From NCBI GenBank assembly GCA_964587565.1, contig CAZPLK010000001.1, positions 701 to 64,700 of the forward strand: 64,000 nucleotides of DNA, written 5' to 3'. This DNA comes from an uncultured Muribaculaceae bacterium (GTDB lineage Bacteria > Bacillota_I > Bacilli_A > RF39 > UBA660). Of the stretch, positions 4,001 through 64,000 are shown in pieces. Within the stretch, counting starts at the first letter, position 1, and every line of letters starts with the position of its first letter. The translations under genes and the position numbers were made by a program. The notes under the pieces were generated by a model. That model worked only from the letters and a program-made list of their open reading frames with translations. It was not told where the DNA came from and ran no database searches.

Positions 4001-4082
4001 GGAGTTTTTTTAATGTAAAAAAAGTCGAATTGTGTTATAATTATATTATAATAATACTATGGCTCTATAAAGGAATGATGTT

Positions 4083-7000
4083 ATGGTAAAGGGGAATATA
4101 AAAACAAATAATATTAAAAAAGTTAATTACATAATTATTTTAGTATGTATAATTTTTTTGTTGCTTATATCAATTCCTACTATGGCAAGATTTAAAAATA
4201 GAAACACTTTAAAAAGAGTAACTACATGGGATGGTAGTGTCGCTAAAAATTATCGCAGCGGTGACGGTTCAAAAGAAAATCCCTTTTTAATAACCAACGG
4301 TTCTGAATTGGCGCATTTTTCTGAACAATTAGAAACAAATAATTATTTAGATATTTATTTTGAATTAAATAACGATATCATTATTAATGAAGGAATATTT
4401 AAATATGATGCAAATAACGGCATTTTATATATTAAAGATAATATAACTTATTATGTTGATCACGATACTAACAAATATTATAAAACAAAAGAACGTGATG
4501 GTGAGGTTATAGGAACTATTAATACGATGAAATCATTTGATAATTTCAAAGGACATTTTAATGGAAATTCATTTTCTATATTTGGATTTTATTTATCAGA
4601 TGAAATTAGCAATGAACTAGCACCGTTTACTAATTTGAATGGGAATATTAACAATCTTTATTTAGAAAATACAATGATTTATGGTGGTAATTATACTTCC
4701 GGTGTAGTCTCAGTTGCAAATAATAGTGAGTTAGAAAACATTTTTTCATCTGGCTATGTAGTAGGTAACAAGGATTATACATTGAATGAAAAAATAATTA
4801 CGTTACCAAATATAGAAGAAACACTTTCAAATGATGAATTAATTAAAAATGTTGAACTACCTAATAAAATACCATTAATTCACAGTGACATTAAAAACAT
4901 TAGTATTACTGGTAAAGTGGATTTATTAAATAAATGTGATCAAATAACTTTATTTGTAAATGACGTTGAAATAGAAAAAGCTGGGGAATTTGAATTAGAA
5001 CTAAATAATGAAATTTCTAAAAACTTAAATTTTAAACTTGTTTCCCAATGTAATGAAGAAACAAATATAAAAATAACAAATTTGCAATATAATGTGAAAT
5101 ATAATCACTCAGCAACAGCTGGAATTATTGCATTATCGCATAACAATAAATTGAAAAACATAATAAACAAAAGTGAAGTTTATGGTGAATTTATAAGTTC
5201 TGGATTAATTGGTACCAGCATAGATTCATTAACTATAACAAACGCTTATAATAAAGGTGCTATTAACAGCGAGAACAAAGGTGCGGGTTTAATAGGAGTT
5301 ATTGAGCAAAGTGACGATGTAATAATTAACAAATCATTTAATGAAGGTAATATAAATTTAGAAGATAATATAGGTTTAATATCTAATATATATAACGTTG
5401 ATAATATGATCGTTCAAAATAGTTTTAACACAGCTAACACTAATTATTTAATAAACACAATTCAATATTCTGTTGTTAATTTTGAAAATGTCTTTTACAC
5501 AACTGGATTAACACCTATCAAAGACGGTATTTATAATGGAATGATTAACGTTACCTTTTTAGAAAACTTAAAAGACAAGGAATTTTTAACAAATTATTTA
5601 TATTTTGAAGAGTTTGATGAAATAGAAAATATAAGCGAAGGCAAAAAAGTTTGGATTTTTGAAGAGGAAAGTTTGCCAATATTATATATTGATGATTTAA
5701 ACAAACCTCTTGTTAATATAAATGCTTTAACATACTCATGGAATAATTATTCTACTTCATTAAATGGTTATAAATTTTCTAAAAATATAACTTTTAATAT
5801 AGAAGAAGCAAATGAATTAAATAAAGTGGAAAATATATATTATTATATAAGTAACACTAGTGAACCATTATTCAAAGAAGAGTTAAATCAAATTAGTAAG
5901 TGGGAAACTTACAATGACATTGTTCAAATAAAAGAAGAAGGAATTTATGTTATATATGCTAAAATAATCGATATAAATGGAAATGTATTTTATATAAACA
6001 CAGATGCACTAGTCCTTGATTCAACAGGTATAACTTTAAATATAAGTTATAAAGATTTTTCATGGTCAGAATTTAGTAACGATTTAAAACAAATTTATAT
6101 TTACGAGCCTGAAATTTTAAATGTATCTTATAACAGTGTAATTTCATCAATAACTAACGCTCAATATTATATATCAAATGAACAATTAACAAGCAAAGAG
6201 TTAGATCAAATCACTGATTATGGCTGGAACGATTTAGAAGATGATATTTTGGTTAGCAATGTAGGGAATAACATAGTTTATGTAAAATTAATTGATAACT
6301 TTGGTTATGTTACATACGCCAATACTGATAAAATCTATATGGATTCTTATATTAATTCTAAAACATTACTCGGTAGAGGTGTTAAAGATTACCTAAACAA
6401 AGATTATAATATAAACACGAAATCATCTATTACTTTAACTTATAAATATTTAAATGAAGAAGCAAGTGATGATGCAGAATATTCACACAACTTAATTACA
6501 AGTAGTTTATTACCGAAGAATACTATTATTACTTTAATAGATAACATAAAAGAAAAGGTTTACACATACCAAATTCCAACTGATGAAGATTATTATAATT
6601 ATAATAAATCATGCGAATCGAATGATGGTGAATGTTATAAATATGCAACATATCCCTTTACTTTATTTAAAGAGGTCGGAATAGCGAATAAACCATTTGT
6701 GGAAGAGAGTTATTTTGTAGCGGGTAAAATAGAAGAAAACTTTGATGTAATAATAGATTTTTCTAAAACAAACATTACTGAAAATTTAACTAATGTAAAA
6801 GTTAAATTAGAAAAAACTAATAATAATATTTATATTACTACTAATGATAAAAATATTAAAACCTTTAATGTATTACAAGATTCTAATTATAATTTGAAAA
6901 TAAATACTGATTATGAAGATGGTCCGATTTTATACAATACCGATTCAGTAACAAATATTAATTTAACTGGTGGCGTAAAGTATTTTAAAACTAATAATAC

Positions 7001-54566: not shown

Positions 54567-56965
<2,399 letters not shown>

Positions 56966-56968
56966 AAT

Positions 56969-56994
56969 GTAGAAGTCAAATGACTTCTACATTC
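56969..56994 (+). terminator. Stem-loop (attenuator or weak terminator) between dnaK and pepF
   Basis: 10-bp inverted repeat gtagaagtca / tgacttctac separated by 'aa'; the U-tail is poor. Confidence 0.35.
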
Positions 56995-57015
56995 GTTATG
57001 CAAAGGAGAACAATA

Positions 57016-58821
57016 TTGAAAACAGAAAAACTTAGAGAAGAAGTTAATATTAATTATAAGTGGGATTTAAGTTTGATGTATAATTCAATTGACGATTGGT
57101 TTATTGAATATAAAAAACTGGATAAAAAAGCTAATGATTTTTTAAATTACAAAGGGAAAAGCTTGCTTGACTCTAATAATTTACTTAATATTTTAGATGA
57201 TTATATAGCGTTGCAAAGAGGATTATCAAAATTGTATGTTTTTGCCAATATGAAAAGTGATGAAAACACACTAGATGTTGAAAATCAAAAAATAAAAGGA
57301 AAAGCAGAAAATTTAAACACTAAGATATTAGAAGTGACTTCATTTTTAATACCAGAATTAATTAAAGTTGATTATAATGAGGTAGAAGAGTGCATGGCTC
57401 AAAATTCAAACTTAAAACAATACGAAAGAATGATTAAAGAAATATTTCGATATAAAAATCATATATTATCAGAAGATATGGAAAAAATATTGTCTTCTTT
57501 AAGCAAAATATTAAATATTCCAACTAATGTATCTAATTTAGTTACAAATGCTGATTTAAAATTCGAGAGTATTAAAGATGAAAATAATAATTTAGTTGCT
57601 ATAACAAATAGCAATTATAATAAATATATAAAATCTGTTAATAGGGATATTAGAAAAAATGCGTTTTATTCTTTATATGGTGGATATAAAAGTGTTATTA
57701 ATACATTAGCCGAAACATTAGCAAGTGAAGTAGAAAAAAACAATACAATTGCTAGTATAAGAGGATATAAAAATGCTTTGGAACATTCTCTTTTTGATAG
57801 TAATATTAGTAGTGGTGTATATTTAAATTTAATTAAAACAGTTAACGATAATTTAGATGAAATTCATAAATACTATAAATTAAAAAAAGACACATTGCAA
57901 CTAACTGAATTAACATTATATGATGTGCATGTTCCTATTGTAAGACAACAAGTATCTAATTATAGCTTCAAAGAAGCACGTCAAATTATTACAGATGCTT
58001 TGAGTATTTTTGGAACTGATTATATAAAAGTTATAAACATGGCCTTTTCAGAAAAATGGATAGATATTTATCCAAACAAAGGGAAGAAAAGTGGGGCATA
58101 CTCTTGGGGATGTTATGATAGTCCCCCATACATACTAATGAATTATCAAAATAAATTAGATGATGTTTCTACATTAATACATGAACTTGGCCACTCTATA
58201 CATAGTTATTTTTCTAGTGAAAACAATAAATATCAAGATTCATCATATAAAATATTTGTAGCTGAAGTTGCATCCTTAGTTAATGAATTAATATTATATG
58301 ATTATATGCTAGAAAATACTAATTGTAAAAAAACAAAAATTAATATTATAGAAAGTAAACTGGAATTATTTAAAAACACATTATTTAGACAAACAATGTT
58401 TGCTGAATTTGAAATAAGCATACATCAAAAAGCCCTTGACAATGAGATTTTAACTAATGAATTGTTCTCGCAAATTTATTATCAATTAAATGATAAATAT
58501 TTTGGTAATGATGTTTTTGTAAACGATGAAATAAAATATGAATGGGCAAGAATACCGCATTTTTATCGAAGTTTTTACGTTTATCAGTATGCAACAGGAT
58601 TAGCAGCAGCTTGCACTATAGTTAATAACATAAAAAAACAAAAAGATAATGCAATTGAAAATTATTTAAAATTTTTAAAATCTGGAAATAGTGATCATCC
58701 ATTAGAATTGTTGAAAATAGTAGATGTAGATTTAACAAAAGCTTACGTAATTGAAAATGCAGTAAATGAATTTAGTGATACATTGGATCAATTTGAATAT
58801 TTAATAAAAAATAGGAAGTAG
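57016..58821 (+). CDS. pepF: Oligoendopeptidase F (M3B)
   Basis: '[11 protein letters not shown]' HExxH and an M3B C-terminal domain. TTG 57016 with RBS 'aaaggag' preferred; track ATG 56980 lies inside the hairpin. Confidence 0.8.
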
Positions 58822-58828
58822 GTGTCAA

Positions 58829-59926
58829 ATGGAAAAAAGGGATTATTATGATATTTTAGGGGTTAATAAAGATGCTTCTATGGATGAAATAAAAAGTGCT
58901 TTTCGAAAGTTGGCAAAAAAATATCACCCCGATGTATCTAAAGAACCAAATGCCGAAGAAAAATTTAAAGAAGCGCAAGAAGCATATGCTATTTTAAGTG
59001 ATGAACAAAAGAGAAGACAATATGATCAATTTGGACACGGGGCCTTTTCAGGTGGTGGTTTTCAAGATTTTGACTTTGACTTTTCGGATATATTTGGAGA
59101 TATATTTGGAGGAGGTTTTGGTGACTTTTTCACGGGTGGTCGTTCAAATCGAAACGCACCTAGAAAAGGTCGTGATACACTGGTAGAAATGAAACTTACT
59201 TTTGAAGAAGCAGTTTTTGGTACTAAAAAGAATTTAAAGTTAAATGTTGATGAAAACTGTACAGAATGTAAAGGTAAAGGTGGATATGGTGAGTCAAACT
59301 GTTCTGTGTGTCACGGAAGTGGTGAAGTGACTACAGAGCAGAGGACAATGTTTGGAACGTTTATGACAAGAACTACTTGTAATAATTGTTTAGGTAAAGG
59401 CACCTCATATGAAAAATCGTGTTCTAGTTGTCGAGGCAGTGGAAAACAAACACAATTAAAAAATATTGAAGTAACAATACCGGCTGGTGTTGATACTGGT
59501 AATCAATTAAGAATACGAGAAAAGGGAGAAGCTGGTACTAATGGTGGTCCAAATGGAGATGTATATTTAGAGTTTGTTGTAGATTTACATCCCTTATTTG
59601 AACGTCATGGTAATGATATTTATTTAGAATTGCCAATAACAATAACAGATGCCGTTTTAGGTGCTAAAATAGATATTCCTACATTAACGGGCAAAGTAAC
59701 TATGTCCATTCCAGCCGGTAGTATGACAAATGATAAGCACCGATTACGCGGTAAAGGTATTGAAGATGTCAATTCACGTCGTAAAGGGGATATGTATGTA
59801 GTCTTAAAAATAGATGTGCCTAAAAAAATAAATAGGGCTCAACGAAAATTATTTGAAGAACTTAAAAAAACGAATTTAGAAACAGACCCACAGTTTAAAA
59901 ACATAAGAAAATACTTAAAATCTTGA
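58829..59926 (+). CDS. dnaJ: Chaperone DnaJ
   Basis: J-domain 'DYYDILGV...KYHPD'; G/F-rich region; four CxxCxGxG zinc repeats. Confidence 0.95.
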
Positions 59927-59973
59927 TTATAATAAATTAATATACTATAATTATAGTATGAAAGGATGAAGTT

Positions 59974-60516
59974 ATGGAAAATATTTTATTAGATGCAGAA
60001 GGAAAGATGGATGAAGCGATTGAGACTATGGAATCTCGATTTGCTAACATAAGAGCAGGGAGAGCTAATCCAGCCATTTTAGATGGTGTTACTGTTTCTT
60101 ACTATGGTGTTGATACACCATTAAAACAATTAGCAACAATTTCAATTCCAGAAGCACGACAATTAAATATCAAACCATTTGATCCTGCAACATTAGGTGC
60201 AATAGAAAAAGCGATTTTTGAATCAAATATTGGACTAACACCTAACAATAGTGGTGAGACTATTATTTTAAATATTCCAGTTTTAACTGAGGAAACTAGA
60301 AAAGATTATGTAAGGCAAGTAAAGGCTATGTCTGAAGATTGCAAAGTCGCACTACGTAAAGTTAGACAGGAAGCAAATGATCGAGTAAAAAAACTTGATA
60401 TTTCAGAAGATGAAATAAAAAATGGTATGGATAATGTTCAAGATTTAATTGATAAATATAATAAAATAGTAGATGAAAAACTAAATACAAAAGAAGAAGA
60501 ATTGATGACTATTTAA
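59974..60516 (+). CDS. frr: Ribosome recycling factor
   Basis: 'RANPAILDGV...', 'VALRKVRQEAND'. Confidence 0.95.
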   Translation: MENILLDAEGKMDEAIETMESRFANIRAGRANPAILDGVTVSYYGVDTPLKQLATISIPEARQLNIKPFDPATLGAIEKAIFESNIGLTPNNSGETIILNIPVLTEETRKDYVRQVKAMSEDCKVALRKVRQEANDRVKKLDISEDEIKNGMDNVQDLIDKYNKIVDEKLNTKEEELMTI

Positions 60517-60630
60517 AAGTGTGGGAATAAAACCCCATATTTTTTAATTAAATAAATTATTATATTTTTTATAAGAATAGTATTTTATATTATATTTTGA
60601 TATAATGTTATATATGTAAGAGGTGATTAT

Positions 60631-61794
60631 ATGAAGAAGATTGGATATTTTATTTTAATGGTGATATTTTTGATGCCACTTTTTATGACTTCTTATACTG
60701 TAGATGCTAGTTCTAAGACATTAAGAGATTTATATAACGAATTATTAGCAATAGAAGATGAGTTAAGAAAAATTAATAATGACAAAAATAGAACAGAAGG
60801 CAAAATAAATGAAATAAAAAATAATGTAGTCCAAATTGATAATGAAGTTGTAACTATTGAAAAAACAATTTTAAATATAAATAACGATATCTTGCGATTA
60901 AATGAAGAGATTATAGGGAAAGATGACGAAATAAAAGAACTTATGAGTTTTTTTCAATTATCAACAGGCGAAAACATTTATTTAGAATATGCTTTTAGTG
61001 CCAATAGTATGACAGATTTTATTTATAGATTGGCAATAGTAGAACAACTAACTAATCATAATAATCGCTTAATTAATGAGATGAATGAAATGATAATTTC
61101 ACAAGAACAAAAATCAATTGAACTTTCTAAACATCAGAAAGATATTTTAGAAAAGAAAAAACAATTACTAAATGAACAAGTTAAACTAGGAGATCAAGTT
61201 AATTTGTTATATAAAAATTCACAATCATTATCTGATGAAATAGCGGATGCAAAAAAAACAATAAAAAATTATGAAAGATTAGGTTGTAAACCATCCGACA
61301 TATTAAGTGAATGTATAAAAATTAATAGGGATGTTTCATTTGCACGTCCAACATTGAGAGGTAGAATTACTTGTGGCTGGCTTTGCTATTCTGGACATCG
61401 TGCTGTTGATATCGGCGGAATTGCCGGTGAAAATATATATCCTACAGCCAATGGAAGAGTAGTGGATATTACTTGGGGATCATCTTGTGGTGGCAACTAT
61501 GTAACTATTCAACATAATATTAATGGTGTACCGTATGCATCACGTTACATGCATATGCAAAATATATATGTGAGGTTTAATGATGTAGTAAGTCGAGACA
61601 CCGTAATAGGAACTGTTGGTGGATGGGCAGGCGGAGTTGACAAGTGTACTACTGGGCCTCATTTACACTTTGCAATTGCAAGAGGTACTTATGCACAAGA
61701 TTTCTGGAGTTTTGGTAATTATGCTATAAATCCATACTCCGTAATAAAATTACCACCAGAAGGTGGATGGTTTTCAACACGATACGGTAATTAA
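60631..61794 (+). CDS. M23-family peptidoglycan metalloendopeptidase with an N-terminal signal peptide and coiled coil
   Basis: Signal peptide; long coiled coil; 'SGHRAVDIGG' (HxxxD) and 'GPHLHFAI' (HxH). Confidence 0.8.
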   Translation: MKKIGYFILMVIFLMPLFMTSYTVDASSKTLRDLYNELLAIEDELRKINNDKNRTEGKINEIKNNVVQIDNEVVTIEKTILNINNDILRLNEEIIGKDDEIKELMSFFQLSTGENIYLEYAFSANSMTDFIYRLAIVEQLTNHNNRLINEMNEMIISQEQKSIELSKHQKDILEKKKQLLNEQVKLGDQVNLLYKNSQSLSDEIADAKKTIKNYERLGCKPSDILSECIKINRDVSFARPTLRGRITCGWLCYSGHRAVDIGGIAGENIYPTANGRVVDITWGSSCGGNYVTIQHNINGVPYASRYMHMQNIYVRFNDVVSRDTVIGTVGGWAGGVDKCTTGPHLHFAIARGTYAQDFWSFGNYAINPYSVIKLPPEGGWFSTRYGN

Positions 61795-61810
61795 TGTAAA
61801 GGAGAATTTT

Positions 61811-64000
61811 ATGGAAATAAAAAATAAAAAACCTAAAATATATATATTAGCAGGCAAAGCAAGAACAGGAAAAGATACGGTAGCTCAAATAATAGGCGAA
61901 ATTTGTAGTGAACAAAAATTAAAACACATTAATTTGCAATACAGTTCATATCTTAAAGAAATGGCACAAAACATAAGTAATTGGGATGGGAGCGAAGAAA
62001 CAAAACCGCGTTCATTACTTCAATTTTTAGGAACAGATTTAATCAGAAAAGAAATTGATGAATTGTTTTTCATTAAAAAGATGTGTTCTGATATAAAGGT
62101 TTATTCAAAATTTTTTGATGTAATTACAATAAGTGATGCTAGATATAAAATTGAAATAGATATAATAAAAGAAAAATTTGATAATGTTTATTCCGTTTCA
62201 ATGGTTCGGCCAAACATCAAAACTACATTATCTAAAACAGAGCAACAGCATATATCAGAAATTGATTTAGATGATTATGATAAATATGATTATATTATTA
62301 ACAACGATGGTACTTTAAAAGATTTAGAAAAAAAAGTACAAGAAATTTTTAATAAAGACAATAAAAAAAACATTAAAATAACGCATAATGAAATGCGCCA
62401 GATGTGGTTTGAATTTTGGAAAACAAAAAACCACGACATTATTCCAAGTGCATCATTAATCCCAATTAATGATCCGACTTTATTATGGATTAATGCAGGG
62501 GTTACACCATTAAAAAAGTTTTTTGATGGTTCTGTTGTACCAAATAATAAAAGAATGGCTAGTAGTCAAAAGTGTATTAGAACAAACGATATAGAAAATG
62601 TTGGAAAAACAGCCCGACACGCAACATTTTTTGAAATGCTTGGAAATTTTTCTATTGGTGATTATTTTAAGGATGAGGCAATAAAATGGTCTTGGGAATT
62701 TTTAACAAGTAATAAATGGTTAGGATTTGATCCAAAAAGATTATATATAACGATTTATCCTACTGATGAAGAAGCCTTTAATGCATGGGTAAAAGTTGGG
62801 GTTGATTCAAATAGAATTATTAAAATGAAAGATAATTTTTGGGAAATAGGGCCGGGACCAAGTGGGCCGTGTAGTGAGATTTTTTATGATTTAGGACCAA
62901 ATTATGATCCTGATAATCTTGGTATTAAAATGTTAAAAGAAGATATTGAAAATGATCGATATATTGAAATATGGAACAATGTATTTAGCATGTATAACGC
63001 TAAGGATGGGATAAAGCGACAAGATTACGAAGAGTTACCAAGTAAAAATATAGATACTGGAATGGGGCTTGAAAGAATATTAACTATTTTACAAAATGTT
63101 GATAATATATATGAGACAGATTTATTTTACCCTGTAATAGAACAAGTAGAAAAACTTTGTAATAAAAAGTATGACGGTAGTGTTGCATTTAAAGTAATTG
63201 CTGATCATATTAGAACAATTACTTTTGCTCTTTCTGATGGCGCAAATTTTGGTAATACTGGACGTGACTATGTTTTAAGAAGATTATTAAGAAGAGCAAT
63301 TAGACATGGCAAAAACTTAAATATTACGGAACCATTTTTATATAAATTAGTACCGACTGTCGTACAAATTATGGAAGAACCTTTCCCTTATTTAAAAGAC
63401 CATGTAAAAAAAGTTTCAAATAAAGTCAAAAAAGAAGAACAATTATTTTTAAAAACTTTAATAGAAGGTGAAAAAAAATTAAATGAATTAATGGATTCTA
63501 GTCAAAGTAAACAAATAAGCGGTGAAGAAGCTTTTAAATTATATGATACATATGGTTTCCCATTTGAACTAACACAAGAAATAGCCCTAGAAAAAGGTTA
63601 TGAAGTATGTAAAAAAGAATTTGATTTAAGTATGGAAAAACAACAAGAAAGAGCACGACAAGCGCGCTTACAAATTAGTAGTATGAGTGTCCAAAATGAA
63701 GATTTAATTAATTTTCATGAAAAAAGTGAGTTTGTTGGTTTTGACAAAAGTTCAATTTCGACAAAAATTATCGGTTTATTCGATGGAAATAATTTAGTAC
63801 CAATTTTGGATAAAGAAGGTTATATAGCACTGGAAAAAACACCTTTTTATGCAGAATCAGGAGGGCAAATTTCTGATAGTGGAATAATTAAAATAAACGA
63901 CCAACAATTAGAAGTTTTAGAAGTGTTTAAAGCTCCTAATGGACAACATTTTCACTTTGTTCAATTTGAAGGTGAGTTAAAAACAGAAAAAATAGTAGAA
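61811..64000 (+). CDS. alaS: In-frame fusion of a T4-gp1-like dNMP kinase P-loop domain (about 190 aa) with alanyl-tRNA synthetase (3'-truncated by the window end)
   Basis: 'KIYILAGKARTGKDTVAQ' matches T4 dNMP kinase 'LIFLSGVKRSGKDTTADF'; 'RSLLQFLGTDLIRKEIDELFFIK' matches 'RRLMQALGTDLIVNNFDRMYWVK'; 'YIINNDGTLKDLEKKVQEIF' matches 'LVITNDGSLEELFSKIKNTL'. No stop before 'HNEMRQMWFEFW...SASLIPINDPTLLWINAGV', which is the AlaS N-terminus. The ORF is still open at 64000. Confidence 0.8.
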   Translation, partial: MEIKNKKPKIYILAGKARTGKDTVAQIIGEICSEQKLKHINLQYSSYLKEMAQNISNWDGSEETKPRSLLQFLGTDLIRKEIDELFFIKKMCSDIKVYSKFFDVITISDARYKIEIDIIKEKFDNVYSVSMVRPNIKTTLSKTEQQHISEIDLDDYDKYDYIINNDGTLKDLEKKVQEIFNKDNKKNIKITHNEMRQMWFEFWKTKNHDIIPSASLIPINDPTLLWINAGVTPLKKFFDGSVVPNNKRMASSQKCIRTNDIENVGKTARHATFFEMLGNFSIGDYFKDEAIKWSWEFLTSNKWLGFDPKRLYITIYPTDEEAFNAWVKVGVDSNRIIKMKDNFWEIGPGPSGPCSEIFYDLGPNYDPDNLGIKMLKEDIENDRYIEIWNNVFSMYNAKDGIKRQDYEELPSKNIDTGMGLERILTILQNVDNIYETDLFYPVIEQVEKLCNKKYDGSVAFKVIADHIRTITFALSDGANFGNTGRDYVLRRLLRRAIRHGKNLNITEPFLYKLVPTVVQIMEEPFPYLKDHVKKVSNKVKKEEQLFLKTLIEGEKKLNELMDSSQSKQISGEEAFKLYDTYGFPFELTQEIALEKGYEVCKKEFDLSMEKQQERARQARLQISSMSVQNEDLINFHEKSEFVGFDKSSISTKIIGLFDGNNLVPILDKEGYIALEKTPFYAESGGQISDSGIIKINDQQLEVLEVFKAPNGQHFHFVQFEGELKTEKIVE

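Follow-up and report, generated by a model that had tools for sequence, protein, structure and literature searches.

Results

A kinase domain and alanyl-tRNA synthetase in one reading frame

The subject of this study is a stretch of 64,000 nucleotides (nt) from contig CAZPLK010000001.1 of an uncultured bacterium (hereafter the window; all positions are counted from its first letter), at the 3' end of which a kinase-like domain and alanyl-tRNA synthetase (AlaRS, encoded by alaS) are encoded in one open reading frame (ORF). The fusion ORF (61811 to 64000, + strand) begins at ATG 61811 and stays open through the last base of the window, giving a translation of 730 codons without a stop that is truncated by the window end. 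A Shine-Dalgarno (SD) sequence, AGGAG, was read directly at 61800 to 61804 on the + strand, 6 nt 5' of this ATG. The ORF with a strong ribosome-binding site at 61811, which an earlier note on this DNA had described, was thus recovered.

The aminoacylation and tRNA-recognition region of AlaRS (62390 to 64000, +) was aligned with positions 1 to 544 of the 552 positions of Pfam tRNA-synt_2c (PF01411; E=1.6e-189), with model position 1 placed at residue 194, and the alaS equivalog TIGR00344 scored 654.4 bits against a cutoff of 457 despite the truncation at the window end. The claim that the frame runs into a canonical AlaS N-terminus was thus confirmed. Over its full length, the catalytic and tRNA-recognition region of the canonical bacterial AlaRS (TIGR00344) is matched by the window protein, which differs from it by an added N-terminal enzyme domain of about 190 amino acids (aa), by the lack of a start codon and SD of its own, and by the lack of a T-box leader. 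The window ORF stops at residue 730, ahead of the positions of the editing (tRNA_SAD) and C-Ala (DHHA1) domains. No second alaS was found within the 64-kb window.

The N-terminal domain belongs to the T4 gp1 kinase family

Residues 1 to 183 (61811 to 62359, +) were identified as a deoxynucleoside monophosphate (dNMP) kinase-like P-loop domain by Pfam, PHROG, profile comparison, AlphaFold/Foldseek, and alignment. The Pfam family DNMK (PF21448) matched residues 1 to 192 over model positions 107 to 232 of 232 (E=4.8e-17; 62.8 bits, gathering cutoff 27.1), and PHROG 139, 'deoxynucleoside monophosphate kinase', matched residues 3 to 182 at full length (E=1.7e-34). With a 30-homolog profile, the best solved relative was the T4 dNMP kinase 1DEK (E=2.2e-14), and the animal-type phosphomevalonate kinase came second with the whole domain aligned (E=2.3e-8). 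The AlphaFold2 model of the domain had a mean pLDDT of 92.6, and its top Foldseek match was 1dek_A (E=3.5e-9, TMq 0.71). The homology to the T4 gp1 dNMP kinase, which had been proposed from the letters of the sequence, was therefore borne out by both families and by the profile and structural matches to 1DEK. The domain was also homologous over its full length to the stand-alone kinases of 175 to 200 aa found in relatives. The kinase and AlaRS similarities are both far beyond chance.

The conserved residues of this kinase family were present. The Walker A motif GKARTGKDT, residues 15 to 23 (61853 to 61879, +), was aligned with SGVKRSGKDT of T4 gp1, and its invariant residues are G15, K16, A17, G20, K21, and D22. 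L73, G74, T75, D109, R111, R133, H147, and E150 are family-invariant and were likewise aligned with T4 gp1, and the LGTD, D-x-R, R-P, and H-x-(T/S)-E motifs are intact. In alignment A1, 37 columns were invariant across 30 sequences, the window's own included, so that all of them are kept here. The blocks shared with T4 gp1 (PDB 1DEK/1DEL; PF21448; PHROG 139) comprise the P-loop GxxRSGKDT, LGTD, D-x-R, VVRP, H-x-TE, and NDG-(S/T)-LE-(D/E)-L. However, the T4 gp1 architecture was not fully matched. Of the roughly 100 residues by which T4 gp1 separates its P-loop helix from its LGTD block (T4 residues ~30 to 128), most are absent, and the profile alignment falls into T4 residues 2 to 29 and 129 to 239, with a matching query gap of only about 27 residues. 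The window domain further differs from T4 gp1 in being cellular and not phage-encoded, in its length (about 185 aa versus 241 aa), and in its fusion to AlaRS.

By score, motifs, and fold, the N-terminal domain belongs to the DNMK/PHROG-139 family, and a (d)NMP-type acceptor is predicted from this family assignment. The dNMP substrates of the T4 enzyme are dGMP, dTMP, and hydroxymethyl-dCMP (hm-dCMP). Two other identities were considered. Dephospho-CoA kinase, the label carried by one homolog at JGI, was unsupported (TIGR00152, E=0.013 over 22 residues). The animal-type phosphomevalonate kinase (PF04275; PDB 7XND, 3CH4) resembles the window domain in its size, aligns with the whole domain, and also phosphorylates a phosphate acceptor; nevertheless, PF04275 scored 26.5 against a gathering threshold of 33.8, and the dNMP kinase families were much stronger.

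Members of this kinase family were also seen fused to other domains. Six such representatives (P0281, P0309, P0325, P0343, P0358, and P0403) are 285 to 397 aa long; in these the kinase occupies one end of the protein, either the N- or the C-terminal one.

The junction has lost the initiation signals of alaS

The junction sequence EIFNKDNKKNIKITHNEMRQMWFEFW contains no stop codon and no intergenic space, and in context it reads ...EIFNK-DNKKNIKITHNE-MRQMWFEFW. From the alignment of fused and unfused junctions, residues 184 to 186 (Asn-Lys-Lys; 62360 to 62368, +) were assigned as a linker, at the place where relatives have the kinase C-terminus and a stop. Residues 187 to 194, NIKITHNE (62369 to 62392, +), were assigned as a remnant of the alaS 5' end by alignment with unfused alaS starts. 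In the unfused relatives, alaS starts 9 codons 5' of the residue aligned with R196 of the window (MKKLSHNEM-R), and the SD duplex energies with the anti-SD at these starts are -6.5 to -10.5 kcal/mol. In the window, the ancestral alaS start position is AAC (Asn187, 62369 to 62371), and no SD precedes it.

The only nearby in-frame start codon, and hence the candidate for independent AlaRS initiation, is the internal ATG of Met195 (62393 to 62395, +). Internal initiation at Met195, or at the ATT/ATA codons 188/190, could supply a substantial share of AlaRS beside the fusion. The region 5' of this ATG is rich in A, and most of it is unpaired in the RNA fold predicted for 62340 to 62460, a fold that was itself not significant (z=-1.75). 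Moreover, of the fused relatives described below, L013 has retained at the ancestral alaS start both an ATG and a good SD (-6.5 kcal/mol), and in L016 the candidates are only weak, so that dual expression is plausible in some fused lineages. However, Met195 lacks an SD in the window, with a duplex energy of +1.8 kcal/mol, and the same lack was seen in L014 (+1.7 kcal/mol) and L012 (-0.1 kcal/mol), compared with the range at the real starts. Met195 corresponds to a conserved internal hydrophobic position (M/L/I) of unfused AlaRS and not to a start, its ATG lies inside a small hairpin, and promoter-like sites in the window were at chance level (22 found versus 19±4 expected). Dual production of this kind is thus considered unlikely in the window. 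Since the alaS start codon and SD are gone in the window, L014, and L012, AlaRS would be made essentially only as the fusion in these three.

The hairpin mentioned above (ACGCAU / AUGCG(C), window 62380 to 62400) encloses the AUG of Met195. A weaker version was seen in L014 and none was evident in the unfused L001; the evidence is too little to call it functional.

The alaS gene of Bacillus subtilis has a T-box leader. Among the Rfam families, T-box (RF00230) included, none reached the gathering score in the window, and none did so in seven fused and unfused relatives. Furthermore, no + strand terminator was found between the kinase and AlaRS domains. The absence of a T-box and of separate promoter or terminator signals suggests that alaS in the whole group is expressed with the upstream genes. 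Taken with the duplex energy at Met195, the negative Rfam result upheld the view that no intergenic space, ribosome-binding site, or T-box serves an independent alaS here. At L006/L007, a 300-nt non-coding gap (1320 to 1619) was observed 5' of tyrS, the expected place of a T-box, and nothing in it reached the Rfam gathering score.

A further possibility is that programmed -1 frameshifting or transcriptional slippage on A_AAA_AAC (62365 to 62371) yields a stand-alone kinase, terminated at TAA 62377, in addition to the fusion. The heptamer stands in frame at the junction of both the window and L014, and a stop in the -1 frame follows a few codons 3'. Nevertheless, it is missing in L013, and no significant downstream structure was predicted (the z score being that given above). 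In-frame A_AAA_AAN heptamers are, moreover, common in this sequence of 27.5% GC, with 95 in 19,182 codons (about 1 per 200), and frameshifting was therefore rejected as an extremely unlikely explanation.

Fused loci in other species

The four kinases closest to that of the window (68 to 70% identity) were all found in frame with alaS, at L012 (CAYXLG010000021), L013 (JAQVMY010000044), L014 (DUPI01000036), and L016 (JAAYMD010000056). In comparison with these fused relatives, the window junction reads KDNKKNIKITHNEM, the L014 junction reads KELKSKNKITHNEM, and the L013 junction reads KDLKKPMISHNEM. The linker of L012 has 39 residues and is acidic, and that of L016 has 31 residues. The spacing between the conserved blocks is 28, 31, 94, and 115 nt in the four species and 36 nt in the window. 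Since linkers of different lengths are all in frame, selection for a continuous ORF is indicated and not random assembly error. The P-loop, LGTD, D-x-R, R133, and H147/E150 are retained in all five fused sequences.

Complete fused ORFs of 1086 aa (L014) and 1112 aa (L012) were available, and both proteins carry DNMK, tRNA-synt_2c, tRNA_SAD, and DHHA1. The presence of all four domains indicates that the fused partner is a whole AlaRS. By exact look-up, the L014 protein is NCBI HHU54498.1, which is annotated only as 'alanine--tRNA ligase', and the kinase domain is therefore invisible in the annotation. HHU54498.1 sits in a 26-member cluster at 90% identity, in which at least 10 of the 15 members listed have a length of 1086 aa, their sources being ENA, Logan, and NCBI assemblies. 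The cluster also contains three shorter complete gene calls, none of which speaks against the fusion: the member of 892 aa was called from the internal Met, that of 900 aa differs at its N-terminus, and that of 189 aa is a C-terminal fragment whose contig (FZPS01000142.1) lacks the remainder of alaS upstream. The genuine kinase-synthetase fusion that the earlier note had offered as one alternative is thus supported, by four species in frame with differing linkers and by a 1086-aa protein that recurs across assemblies.

The contig of the 189-aa member (L092, 1.36 Mb) carries these last 189 aa, the DHHA1 part, at 4001 to 4570, beside an S8 peptidase gene on the opposite strand. Neither the kinase nor the remainder of alaS is present upstream, which suggests that the scaffold was misjoined or has been rearranged.

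The other alternative was that a stop or a frame had been lost between two genes by an assembly error or by pseudogenisation. An A8 homopolymer (62363 to 62370, +) lies exactly at the junction and is the sole site where a 1-nt miscall could make or break the fusion. With one A fewer, the kinase would end at TAA 62377 to 62379 after ...NKKTLK, at the size of its stand-alone homologs, and kinase and alaS are separate genes in most relatives. A sequencing or assembly error at this run would then have joined two genes falsely. However, in either of the other frames alaS would have neither an SD nor, at the ancestral position, a start codon, so that the split is the worse gene model. The same in-frame architecture was found in four other species and in the 26-member protein cluster, the homologous linker of L014, KSKNKITHNEM, is encoded with an interrupted A run, and 18 other runs of at least eight A lie inside the long intact ORFs that cover about 90% of the window. 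An error at the A8 run is therefore regarded as very unlikely.

As for pseudogenisation, in which the junction would be a decaying remnant with one or both halves non-functional, loss of a stop codon can accompany decay, and nothing specific to it was seen. Both halves scored as full-length family members, the frame runs for 730 codons without a stop, and the invariant kinase residues are all kept. Moreover, the locus is that of the syntenic housekeeping alaS (alaS-ireB-ruvX-DUF1292-mltG in relatives), and the window has no second alaS. Pseudogenisation was thus effectively refuted. Neither form of the lost-stop alternative was borne out, given the shared fusion, the kept invariant residues, the lost alaS start signals, and the intact ORFs around the other A runs.

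Separate kinase and alaS genes in more distant relatives

The best 120 kinase matches in a database of 5.8 billion proteins were taken as the closest-homolog set. All 120 are stand-alone proteins of 175 to 224 aa with 51 to 67% identity. When residues 1 to 400, which span the junction, were searched against the same database, only partial AlaRS fragments were seen among the matches listed, and this search was uninformative.

One genome per species was scanned in GTDB, and the kinase was found in 401 species, of which the best 80 were used for the locus counts. All 80 loci belong to metagenome-assembled genomes (MAGs) of uncultured 'Bacilli/Mollicutes/Tenericutes/Firmicutes CAG'. In 72 of the 80, alaS follows the kinase directly, and the stop codon of the one usually overlaps the start codon of the other. 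Among these 72, four are fused, 15 have a separate alaS of about 900 aa, 50 have a separate alaS of about 588 aa, and three have a separate alaS that runs off the contig. In two loci a single gene stands between kinase and alaS, and the remaining six are without alaS, five with other genes 3' of the kinase and one at a contig end. Two AlaRS architectures that differ greatly, of about 900 and about 588 aa, are thus found linked to the kinase.

The short form of about 588 aa, present in at least 50 of the 80 loci, is only 36 to 44% identical to the window AlaRS, and its length excludes the editing and C-Ala domains. Examples were seen at L021, L026, L027, L031, L057 (from about 4539 to the alaS stop), and L063.

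The junctions between separate genes are tight, with a TAATG overlap in L001, a 19-nt spacer in L004, and a 20-nt overlap in L006. Such overlapping or abutting stop and start codons imply translational coupling. The stand-alone kinase/alaS operons of uncultured Bacilli, RF39-like and related (e.g., Firmicutes bacterium CAG:822 and Candidatus Coprosoma) encode the same kinase family at 52 to 63% identity, directly 5' of alaS in the same orientation and mostly with overlapping stop and start codons. They differ from the window in that the genes are separate and a strong SD precedes alaS.

The comparison of orthologous loci proposed in the earlier note therefore gave a clear pattern, with the four closest species fused and the more distant ones mostly separate. 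Relatives having separate genes with an intergenic T-box had been named there as contrary to a fusion. The first part was found in most of the more distant relatives, but a T-box was not, and the genes overlap or nearly abut. Since the separate-gene relatives represent the ancestral state of the fusion, they are not evidence against it.

Gene neighborhood

The neighborhood conserved among the relatives is pepF - dnaJ - frr - M23 peptidase - AI-2E transporter - kinase - alaS - ireB, followed 3' of ireB by ruvX - DUF1292 - mltG/yceG - O-methyltransferase - U32 peptidase. The downstream synteny in the relatives' loci is the same as the Bacillus-type order alaS-ireB(yrzL)-ruvX(yrrK)-yrzB-mltG(yrrL). 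In the window, the fusion ORF is preceded by the M23-peptidase gene (60631 to 61794), with 16 nt between its stop and ATG 61811.

In every relative examined, the fused ones included, the M23-peptidase and kinase genes are separated by a gene for an AI-2E-family transporter (e.g., L001 4865 to 5980, L004 4843 to 5988, and L012 1220 to 2362). No such gene was found at 61795 to 61810 or in the whole 64-kb window, and the M23-peptidase gene abuts the fusion ORF because the transporter gene is absent there.

The GC content given above is that of the whole window, about 90% of which is covered by + strand ORFs of at least 120 aa. The GC skew was above zero in every sliding window profiled (56000 to 64000), and no tRNA gene reached threshold within the 64 kb. 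The ORF coverage, GC content, and skew would fit a small low-GC genome of which the window is a long co-directional stretch on the leading strand.

Discussion

The window very probably encodes a genuine and evolutionarily retained fusion, in which a kinase, a linker, and AlaRS form one polypeptide that arose by loss of the stop codon between two coupled genes. The architecture, its conservation in other species, the loss of the alaS signals, and the absence of a T-box are observed features of these loci.

Several observations weigh against this interpretation. The A8 run sits in the window's own junction, and the junction itself was not met again in other data: exact look-ups of neighboring window proteins found the same organism on the short Logan contigs L009 to L011 (SRR8925797, SRR8925798), which end before the junction, and the window junction had no match when JGI metagenome contigs were scanned twice for its DNA pattern. 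A kinase search of 1.84 billion cluster representatives returned no protein of at least 900 aa among the best 150 of 5359 matches, so that the fusion either is rare and confined to a small clade or is hidden in clusters with an unfused representative. As to the identity of the N-terminal domain, the second-best structural relative of its model, the animal-type phosphomevalonate kinase, follows the T4 enzyme closely (Foldseek E=3e-8, TMq 0.69). Furthermore, neighbor-joining trees of the kinase, of AlaRS, and of their concatenation, which are without support values, grouped the five fused sequences with the unfused L004 and L018 nested inside and with the unfused L001 as sister to the group. This nesting implies that the genes either fused once and were later split again or fused several times independently, and the fused state is labile and possibly nearly neutral.

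A genuine fusion would have arisen as follows. The ancestor probably carried a gene of about 185 aa for a (d)NMP-kinase-like protein of the T4-gp1/PHROG-139 type immediately 5' of the housekeeping alaS. In a small clade of uncultured low-GC MAG lineages of Bacilli/'Mollicutes', to which the organism of the window belongs, the kinase stop would have been lost and the two frames joined, after which the alaS start codon and SD decayed in most of the fused members. Translation from ATG 61811 would then yield one polypeptide of roughly 1080 to 1120 aa, with an N-terminal P-loop kinase, a short variable Lys/Glu-rich linker, and a complete AlaRS (catalytic, tRNA-recognition, editing, and C-Ala) in this order. 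Both domains may be active and act as independent enzymes, the one in ATP-dependent (d)NMP-type phosphorylation and the other in alanylation of tRNAAla. The fusion may thereby fix a 1:1 ratio that translational coupling had earlier approximated.

To our knowledge, whole enzyme domains are rare on bacterial aminoacyl-tRNA synthetases, and a full-text literature search found nothing relevant on a kinase-AlaRS combination. The nearest described architectural analogue is Mycoplasma penetrans methionyl-tRNA synthetase (MetRS), which bears an appended aminotransferase domain at its N-terminus (PMC7694997; PMC13215547). Both are synthetases of low-GC bacteria with a whole metabolic enzyme at the N-terminus. 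In M. penetrans, the appended domain supplies the amino-acid substrate of MetRS itself (PMC7694997). In the window, by contrast, both the synthetase and the enzyme are different ones, and a dNMP kinase has no evident link of this metabolic kind to AlaRS. Gene fusions of aminoacyl-tRNA synthetases are now recognized as common across life (PMC13215547). The window thus presents a new domain combination of a familiar type, namely, an aminoacyl-tRNA synthetase with an enzyme domain appended by fusion of neighboring genes. The fusion is real but not radically new, and mechanistically it is unsurprising. The locus contributes a natural case, shared by several species, of an AlaRS with a nucleotide-kinase domain at its N-terminus.

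The pairing of kinase and alaS, with adjacency in 72 of the 80 loci examined and a kinase present in 401 GTDB species, is a 'Rosetta-stone' hint of a functional link; this linkage was not found described in the literature and is experimentally testable. The adjacency, the pairing with two AlaRS architectures, and the covalent fusion in at least five species raise the idea that the kinase is a dedicated partner of AlaRS, forming a physical complex and having an activity tied to AlaRS chemistry. We regard this idea as rather doubtful. For example, the target of the kinase might be a nucleotide that aminoacylation yields as a product or by-product, or, as for PSTK, a kinase of the same fold, a substrate linked to tRNA. 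If it were true, the dedicated partner would represent a previously unrecognized accessory activity of bacterial aminoacyl-tRNA synthetases. If the link is merely neutral, the kinase-alaS loci would still provide a clean example of the fusion, and possibly the fission, of translationally coupled genes.

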